Assembly (NCBI GenBank): GCA_023253175.1
Contig: JALRHH010000002.1
Location: 320,199-384,198, forward strand
Direction of reading: 5' to 3'
DNA length: 64,000 bases
From: Candidatus Saccharimonadia bacterium
GTDB lineage: Bacteria; Patescibacteriota; Saccharimonadia; Saccharimonadales; JALRHH01
Both the position numbers and the translations under genes were made by a program. Of this stretch, positions 32,089-32,256 are shown in pieces (the first letter of the stretch is position 1; every line of letters begins with the position of its first letter). The notes under the pieces were generated by a model. That model worked only from the letters and a program-made list of their open reading frames with translations. It searched no databases and was not told where the DNA came from.

Positions 32089-32256
32089 TAGGGCTGCCGG
32101 ATGTCGATTTGTTGATAGTAAAACTTTATAGATATCAGATTTGTAATCGGTCTTGTCGGCTTCTGGTCGTACTTGTAGGTACGAACCGGAAACGAGAAAC
32201 TGATTACAAGTGATAGATATGGAGTTTTGCCAACAAATTGATGTCTGGCAGTCCTA
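32089..32256 (+). ncRNA. candidate structured RNA: roughly 170-nt rod-like hairpin
   Basis: About 71 bp in 7 helices, for example 32089-32114 with 32231-32256. Twelve G-U pairs are valid only on the + strand. Apical loop UUGUAG at 32173-32178. Confidence 0.55.

Follow-up and report, generated by a model that had tools for sequence, protein, structure and literature searches.

In the 64,000-nucleotide stretch of Saccharimonadia DNA analysed here (the window), the genes for tRNA-Asp and tRNA-Val are separated by a sequence that can be drawn as one long, rod-like hairpin. The question raised by this locus is whether the hairpin serves the tRNA genes around it, is itself the gene of a structured RNA, or is a piece of DNA that has come from elsewhere. 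The genomes of Saccharibacteria and other CPR bacteria are tiny, and very few mobile elements or regulatory RNAs are recognised in them. The hairpin is a member of a previously undescribed, rare family of rod-shaped elements of ~170-185 nt in Saccharibacteria. With moderate confidence, this family is read here as a low-copy, non-autonomous mobile hairpin element that would need its single-stranded fold for propagation, the copy in the window being a passenger.

Fold of the hairpin and its strand asymmetry

Folding of positions 32080-32268 with RNAfold gives one hairpin of 80 bp, 13 of them G-U pairs, which occupies 32083-32264 of the + strand and which, like the consensus of the family, is interrupted by internal loops and bulges of 1-5 nt only. 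The same rod is matched by covariance model R1 at 32085-32264 with 163.7 bits. As + strand RNA it has a folding energy of -101 kcal/mol, compared with -41.9 +/- 3.9 for shuffled sequences (z = -15.3), and the long hairpin of the original prediction is thus a fold far beyond chance. All six helix segments listed in that prediction are fully paired, with 26 of 26 positions paired between 32089-32114 and 32231-32256. Its apical helix of 10 bp stands with a trivial difference, in that the 6-nt loop is replaced in RNAfold by a UGUA tetraloop closed by a U.G pair.

The outer 7 bp of the rod (32083-32089/32258-32264, + strand) are mostly pre-existing flank (GTAC...GTAC). The inserted element proper, TAGGGCTGCC...GGCAGTCCTA, is ~168 nt long and lies at 32089-32256 of the + strand, with the ends TAGGGC...GTCCTA, as delimited by the three-way alignment A1 described below. 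The apical stem-loop (32161-32191, + strand) is the most conserved part of the family, and its core, GGTCGTAC-NTGTAN-GNACGAA, was used as search motif.

The stability of the fold depends on the strand that is read. The - strand RNA folds more weakly (-63.5 kcal/mol, 3 G-U pairs, z = -9.6), and the asymmetry is kept with DNA parameters (-47.3 for the + strand versus -27.8 for the - strand). In a 200-nt sliding scan of the whole 64-kb window, the hairpin ranks first in stability (-105, against a window mean of -53.8 with a standard deviation of 9.4), with a gap of 37 kcal/mol between the two strands. The hairpin is unique in the 64-kb window, and its sequence is identical in contigs of the same species from other samples, indicating that it is not an assembly artefact. 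The second-best value of the window, down to -98 kcal/mol per 200 nt, is found on the - strand at 8361-8881, a region with no Rfam match. Another palindrome, imperfect and with no loop (40+40 nt, 78% complementary), is found at 35531-35610 between nrdR (-) and thrS (+).

A scan of the window with Rfam 15 at gathering thresholds returns rRNA, RNase P and tRNAs only, in agreement with the earlier exclusion of 6S, SRP, tmRNA and retron RNAs; HEARO/omega RNA likewise gives no match. For three members of the family, no bacterial Rfam family is matched even at E <= 10, and the sole sub-threshold matches are plant MIR precursors (e.g., MIR821, with 31.5 bits versus a threshold of 249 bits). By-eye resemblances to SRP and 6S RNA (GGGGGCUCU..GGUUC at the 5' end of the L072 homologue, AGCAGC, and CAGGUC on the - strand) were rejected, given that there is no model support, no GNRA apex and no central bubble. 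A box C/D or TIGR-Tas guide array (PMC12045711) was likewise rejected, since the locus lacks both an array and a Tas neighbour, and UGA and CUGA lie in helices. A coding function was rejected as well, since no ORF is conserved across the copies and the alignment contains 1-nt indels. The statement that no reverse transcriptase accompanies the hairpin holds for the window within +/-10 kb, and the RVT_3 match at 42321-43004 is an RNase H-type domain and not a reverse transcriptase. A literature search on ncRNAs or MITEs of Saccharibacteria and CPR bacteria found nothing relevant.

The window also contains type IV pilus genes, NDK, ThrRS, RNase P RNA and rRNA genes. The rRNA operon is unlinked and rearranged: the 16S rRNA gene (59755-61257, +) is separated by 2.3 kb from the 23S rRNA gene (from 63557, +), and between them lie a 341-aa ORF (61480-62505, +) with no Pfam match and, on the opposite (-) strand, tRNA-Ala and tRNA-Ile (62550-62807).

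Insertion sites and homologues in Saccharibacteria

The genes that flank the hairpin, tRNA-Asp(gtc) on its left (31999-32074) and tRNA-Val(gac) on its right (32312-32388), are both on the - strand according to ARAGORN and Rfam, as had been stated. The locus was compared with 80 loci, kept from 257 GTDB genome relatives of the glycosyltransferase encoded at 33089-34705, almost all from Saccharibacteria/Saccharimonadales. According to ARAGORN, the adjacency of tRNA-Asp and tRNA-Val is common only to L001 and L028 among these loci; they are the nearest relatives, with glycosyltransferases 81% and 78% identical to that of the window, respectively. In both, the spacer has ~70 nt and the hairpin is absent. 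In the alignment of the three loci (A1), the hairpin is matched by a clean gap of ~168 nt in the relatives, while the tRNAs and a promoter-like box upstream of tRNA-Asp are conserved; no target-site duplication is evident in this alignment. The hairpin is thus an insertion of ~168 nt that the nearest relatives lack, rather than a conserved part of the Asp-Val spacer. A search for closer relatives through a neighbouring 185-aa protein returned only near-identical contigs plus one truncated contig.

The conserved box corresponds to a predicted sigma-70-like promoter of tRNA-Asp on the - strand at 32273-32301 (TTGCTA-17-TATCAT with a TG), and its TTGnnn-17-TAnnnT architecture is kept in L001 and L028. 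Given that this promoter (32301-32273) lies beyond the hairpin, an antisense copy of the hairpin is placed in the 5' leader of tRNA-Asp and should be transcribed as part of a leader of ~190 nt. The promoter scan found no sigma-70-like + strand promoter upstream of the hairpin.

The surroundings of the tRNA genes show other rearrangements. The region 3' of tRNA-Asp (31826-31998) contains a direct repeat of the 3' end of this tRNA, gcggaccgaacgggatt at 31826-31845, together with T-arm-like fragments (31895-31950) and two bidirectional terminators. A similarly duplicated 3' end of tRNA-Asp is found in L001 at ~4740-4960, and contig L090, from the species of the window, lacks 31911-32018, with the deletion bounded by cccgcgacctt repeats. 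This arrangement resembles the att-type scar that an old integration at tRNA-Asp would leave; ARAGORN at low threshold gave junk calls only on the tRNA-like remnants. On the other side, nearly all related loci carry a tRNA-Gly(ccc) 3' of tRNA-Thr(cgt) that the window lacks (32572-32700), and the interval between tRNA-Thr and the glycosyltransferase is ~100 nt shorter in the window than in L001. A XerC/D-type tyrosine recombinase is encoded 5 kb upstream of the hairpin (26210-27160, -), beside NDK and tRNA-Arg, and is probably outside any mobile element, given that relatives have NDK and tRNA-Arg at similar positions.

Homologues of the hairpin are known from six other lineages, in contexts that are all different from one another, with pairwise identities between lineages of 59-78%. 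Those of L072 and L079 were found at another locus by blastn and nhmmer, and a search with covariance model R1 over ~945 kb from 80 Saccharibacteria species recovered this single lineage. A metagenome search by the conserved apical motif TGGTCGTACNTGTANGNACGAA over 241 million records gave 7 contigs from 7 samples, with one match per sample. All 7 are homologous (57-207 bits), 6 of them full-length, the copy of L086 being cut by the end of its contig. The motif is conserved between the window and the independently found L072/L079. With one copy in 64 kb and one match per metagenome sample, the family is apparently single-copy or low-copy in the partial genomes that were covered.

The copies of L072, L079 and L081 are flanked by nrdR and an ABC-F gene and run antisense to both; those of L083 and L098 follow directly past the stop codon of ruvC; that of L085 lies between divergent CBS-domain and DsbA genes; those of L082, L084 and L087 are at convergent gene ends; and that of L086 is elsewhere again. 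The flanking transcription units run antisense to the sense strand of the hairpin in the window and in L079, and in L083 and L082 the hairpin is downstream of a co-oriented gene, so that a sense RNA would be made there. No consistently linked gene or conserved neighbour was found across the loci. The inserted unit carries neither a promoter nor a terminator, and the copies share no upstream motif; no flanking tetranucleotide is conserved among the 7 contexts. The termini (TAGRGCT...AGCYCTA) are inverted repeats by construction, and several copies start and end with TA (TAGGGC...GTCCTA, TAGAGC...GCTCTA). Several contigs (L072, L083, L098, L084, and L087) end ~30-125 nt past the hairpin and L086 ends inside it, so that 6 of ~13 independent family-bearing contigs end near or inside the hairpin, far above chance. 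Insertion polymorphism in populations or a drop in coverage are possible causes of these breaks.

Empty counterparts were found at three further sites. The site between nrdR and ABC-F is empty in L056 and L078 (ABC-F 81% and 66% identical, respectively), where the two genes are ~36 nt apart. That between CBS and DsbA is empty in L097, L094, L095, L096 and a JGI contig, where the intergenic region has ~80 nt versus 250 nt in L085, and in L097 the hairpin is absent even though the adjacent protein is 92% identical in amino acids to the neighbour in L085. The empty sequence reads ...GAAAGAGGT-TAACA-ATCCTTTACAA and the filled one ...GAAAGAGGT-[TGAGGGCTAATCC...GGATTAGCCCTGTGT]-ATCCTTTACAA. The ruvC site is empty in relatives with an 85%-identical RuvC, in which ruvA follows 35-48 nt on or the next gene overlaps ruvC; it is less clean, given that the downstream gene differs between filled and empty versions.

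The inserted unit is exactly the hairpin at three sites (window, nrdR/ABC-F and CBS/DsbA), and at none of these, where filled and empty flanks could be aligned, is there a target-site duplication or a flanking direct repeat. No moderately diverged genome keeps the hairpin at any of the four sites, the element being confined to one shallow lineage each; orthologous retention was specifically not found at the ruvC and CBS/DsbA sites. A precise deletion of the palindrome in the relatives could mimic an insertion at any one site, which is unlikely for four. In the empty CBS/DsbA site (L097, 880-1040) the predicted promoter of DsbA reads TTGAAA-16-TACAAT, and in L085 (5420-5800) the element sits in the spacer of this putative promoter. 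There, the 3' end of the element may supply TTGGAT 17 nt upstream of the -10 box, giving a hybrid promoter.

Selection on the folded strand and readings of the family

The alignment of the copies of the window, L072 and L079 already contains 17 compensatory pairs. In alignment A3, built with the model from 8 distinct sequences, pairing covers 94.9% of the cells, versus 40-52% in partner-slid controls, and double changes occur in 32 of 69 pairs, a count reached by none of 500 shuffles. The strand bias amounts to 49 G-U cells versus 9 A-C cells, with G-U equal to or above A-C in every lineage. Ten G-U positions are common to at least two sequences, no A-C mismatch is shared, and at two of the ten, columns 38-150 and 57-132, the pair is G.U or U.G in 6 sequences. 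The G-U asymmetry first noticed on the + strand of the window is therefore conserved across 8 homologues (49:9). It does not depend on GC skew: read in the sense of the hairpin, the skew of the flanks is positive in four independent lineages plus the cut copy of L086 and negative in three, and a replication mutation bias was rejected as source of the excess, which persists where the flank skew is negative. Covariation together with the one-strand G-U excess points to selection on a folded + sense single strand, and the signal would be the same for ssDNA and for RNA. Both generic marks of a structured RNA, covariation and strand-specific G-U pairs, are found in the family, and a new RNA class, as had been suggested, is possible.

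Conservation peaks in the apical third (0.90, 45/69 columns invariant), although the apical motif served to find 7 of the loci and so inflates this value in part; the base, where the stem covaries, is the least conserved (0.71). Most members keep asymmetric internal loops (AUAGC/UAGC, CAG/AC) and a UGA bulge. The copy of the window is the most divergent member; its AUAGC/UAGC and CAG/AC loops have been replaced by extra pairs, which makes it the most stable one.

The patchy presence at syntenic sites is best read as mobility. The element would enter or relocate into intergenic DNA as a folded single strand, without target-site duplication, and given that it has no gene, promoter or terminator, it would have to be moved by machinery acting in trans. 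No reverse transcriptase, transposase or integrase is adjacent to the copies, whose neighbours differ at every locus. A tblastn search with approximate IS608 TnpA and YafM queries against 1.03 Mb of partial-genome DNA gave no significant match. As for a phage or plasmid origin, two motif scans of IMG/VR gave 0 matches, and INPHARED and PLSDB gave no blastn match. The copy in the window would have landed between the promoter of tRNA-Asp and tRNA-Asp, antisense to the tRNA transcript; RNase P would cut off the antisense hairpin together with the leader, and this copy is most likely a tolerated passenger, probably neutral for the tRNA operon. Palindromic mobile elements with hairpins kept by compensatory changes are known from REPINs (PMC3116915) and from bcr1 and other MITEs (PMC3184786), and MITE copy numbers go down to 1 (PMC10969869).

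Against the mobile-element reading stands the pattern of conservation, which is greatest at the apex and smallest at the ends, opposite to that of MITEs and REPINs; the conserved asymmetric loops, too, are closer to those of a protein-binding RNA. A selfish element present in a single copy is expected to decay, and the long-term purifying selection seen in the family argues for a function at the level of the host or of the RNA. A mobile ncRNA gene or RNA-level selfish element, in which the mobile-element reading and that of an ncRNA gene may merge, can be proposed tentatively as a new class of self-contained element in CPR bacteria. It would be a hairpin of ~180 nt that moves in single-stranded, folded form, as RNA or ssDNA, with neither a target duplication nor an enzyme linked to it; selection would keep it intact because its folded RNA also acts in trans, and it would have no counterpart among described bacterial RNAs or transposons.

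The same selection on a single-copy sequence would be explained by a gene for a trans-acting structured ncRNA, possibly protein-binding as in RNPs of the 6S, Y or SRP type, with a + sense product and a locus that shifts by genome flux or by its own mobility. The size of ~180 nt and the rod shape fit such a gene, as do the strong covariation, the apparent single copy, the sense RNA expected from the co-oriented upstream genes of L083 and L082, and the conservation of G.U pairs, asymmetric loops, UGA bulge and apex across lineages that are 59-78% identical. However, the inserted unit has no promoter, terminator or conserved upstream motif of its own, its orientation to the neighbours is random, with the sense strand antisense to the flanking units in the window and in L079, and no Rfam family matches it even at E <= 10. 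It is also rare, with 7 matches in 241 million metagenome records and an empty site even in a 92%-identical relative, unlike a housekeeping RNA, and the copy of the window has lost the conserved internal loops. This explanation is rather unlikely, but it is the main rival of the mobile-element reading.

A classical MITE of a DDE transposase (e.g., IS630/Tc1-like, with TA target duplication), in which the whole-length repeat would represent long TIRs, is improbable. The TA at both ends of several copies and the likeness of the fold to the plant MITE-derived MIR hairpins, the only sub-threshold Rfam matches, would fit it, but neither TA nor any other sequence is duplicated at the three aligned filled and empty sites. 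The one-strand G-U bias and the compensatory changes are unexpected for TIRs that are recognised as double-stranded DNA, and the ends are the least conserved part. There is no transposase with matching ends either: a search for a parent IS by the terminal motif in ~1 Mb of loci gave chance-level, non-folding matches only.

Even less probable is a cis-acting role at the tRNA locus, as a processing or stability hairpin (an RNase III site) of the tRNA-Val/tRNA-Asp transcript or as an antisense regulator. Its position within the predicted leader of tRNA-Asp and the fold that the - strand version still attains (-63.5 kcal/mol, z = -9.6) are compatible with such a role, while its absence from the Asp-Val spacer of the nearest relatives, the homologues in unrelated contexts and the selection on the opposite strand speak against it. 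The local antisense or processing function put forward in the original prediction is thus unlikely, also because the - strand promoter would give the antisense version and no + strand promoter was found. Finally, a chance palindrome, replication-bias artefact or assembly chimera has a negligible probability, since the GC skew of the + strand, positive throughout the window, could favour G.T over A.C but would have to be set against a z of -15, an identical sequence in independent assemblies, covarying homologues, and a G-U bias that is also present in copies with negative-skew flanks.

If the hairpin is a mobile element, it represents a new agent of genome plasticity in the phylum, with a strand-specific fold kept across deep lineages and with landing sites that include a tRNA leader, an mRNA 5' region and a promoter spacer. 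With its unusually clean covariation, the family is a candidate new RNA family too, and a test case for the persistence of single-copy palindromic elements. The element should be masked or annotated as such, lest it be read as a local regulatory RNA of the tRNA operon.

Comparison with known systems

Among known systems, 6S RNA shares with the hairpin a size of ~180 nt, a largely double-stranded rod, the single copy and the strand specificity. Nonetheless, 6S RNA has a large central bubble, whereas the hairpin has no such bubble, no match to the Rfam 6S models even at E <= 10, and no promoter or terminator of its own, and its family is sporadic, with empty sites in close relatives. Retron ncRNAs need an adjacent RT gene, and there is none beside the copies of the hairpin. 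With the ssDNA elements of the IS200/IS605 group, the lack of target-site duplication and the strand specificity agree; those elements insert 3' of a fixed tetra- or pentanucleotide, and no flanking tetranucleotide is conserved among the 7 contexts.

The Rickettsia palindromic elements (RPEs) are palindromes of ~105-150 bp scattered over the reduced genome of an obligate symbiont, and their mechanism of mobilisation is unknown (PMC3184786, PMC10969869). RPEs are multi-copy, often lie in frame in protein genes and code for peptides, while the Saccharibacteria family is intergenic and has no conserved ORF. Bacterial MITEs, such as bcr1 of the Bacillus cereus group, Correia/nemis and ERIC, are shorter than 200 bp, non-coding and patchy among relatives, as observed here. 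Those of the bcr1 type form long stem-loops at the RNA level, with compensatory changes in bcr1 (PMC3184786), and the same is found in this family. However, MITEs carry target-site duplications (5 bp in bcr1, TA in Correia) and IS-derived TIRs, while here three sites show no duplication and there is no known parent IS.

REPINs, which are mobilised by RAYTs (IS200-IS605-like Y1 transposases), are likewise non-coding, intergenic palindromic mobile DNA that forms one long hairpin in ssDNA or mRNA. Their hairpin is kept by compensatory changes (PMC3116915), as in the Saccharibacteria element, and a single-strand, strand-specific mechanism is plausible for both. REPINs differ in having ~70-110 nt and tens to hundreds of copies, versus ~170-185 nt and an apparently single copy. 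In REPINs the ends are conserved, the spacer varies and a RAYT gene is linked in single copy, whereas here no RAYT was found in the ~1 Mb of DNA searched, the apex (0.90) is more conserved than the base (0.71), and the pattern of two inverted REP units with conserved ends is not that of the Saccharibacteria element.
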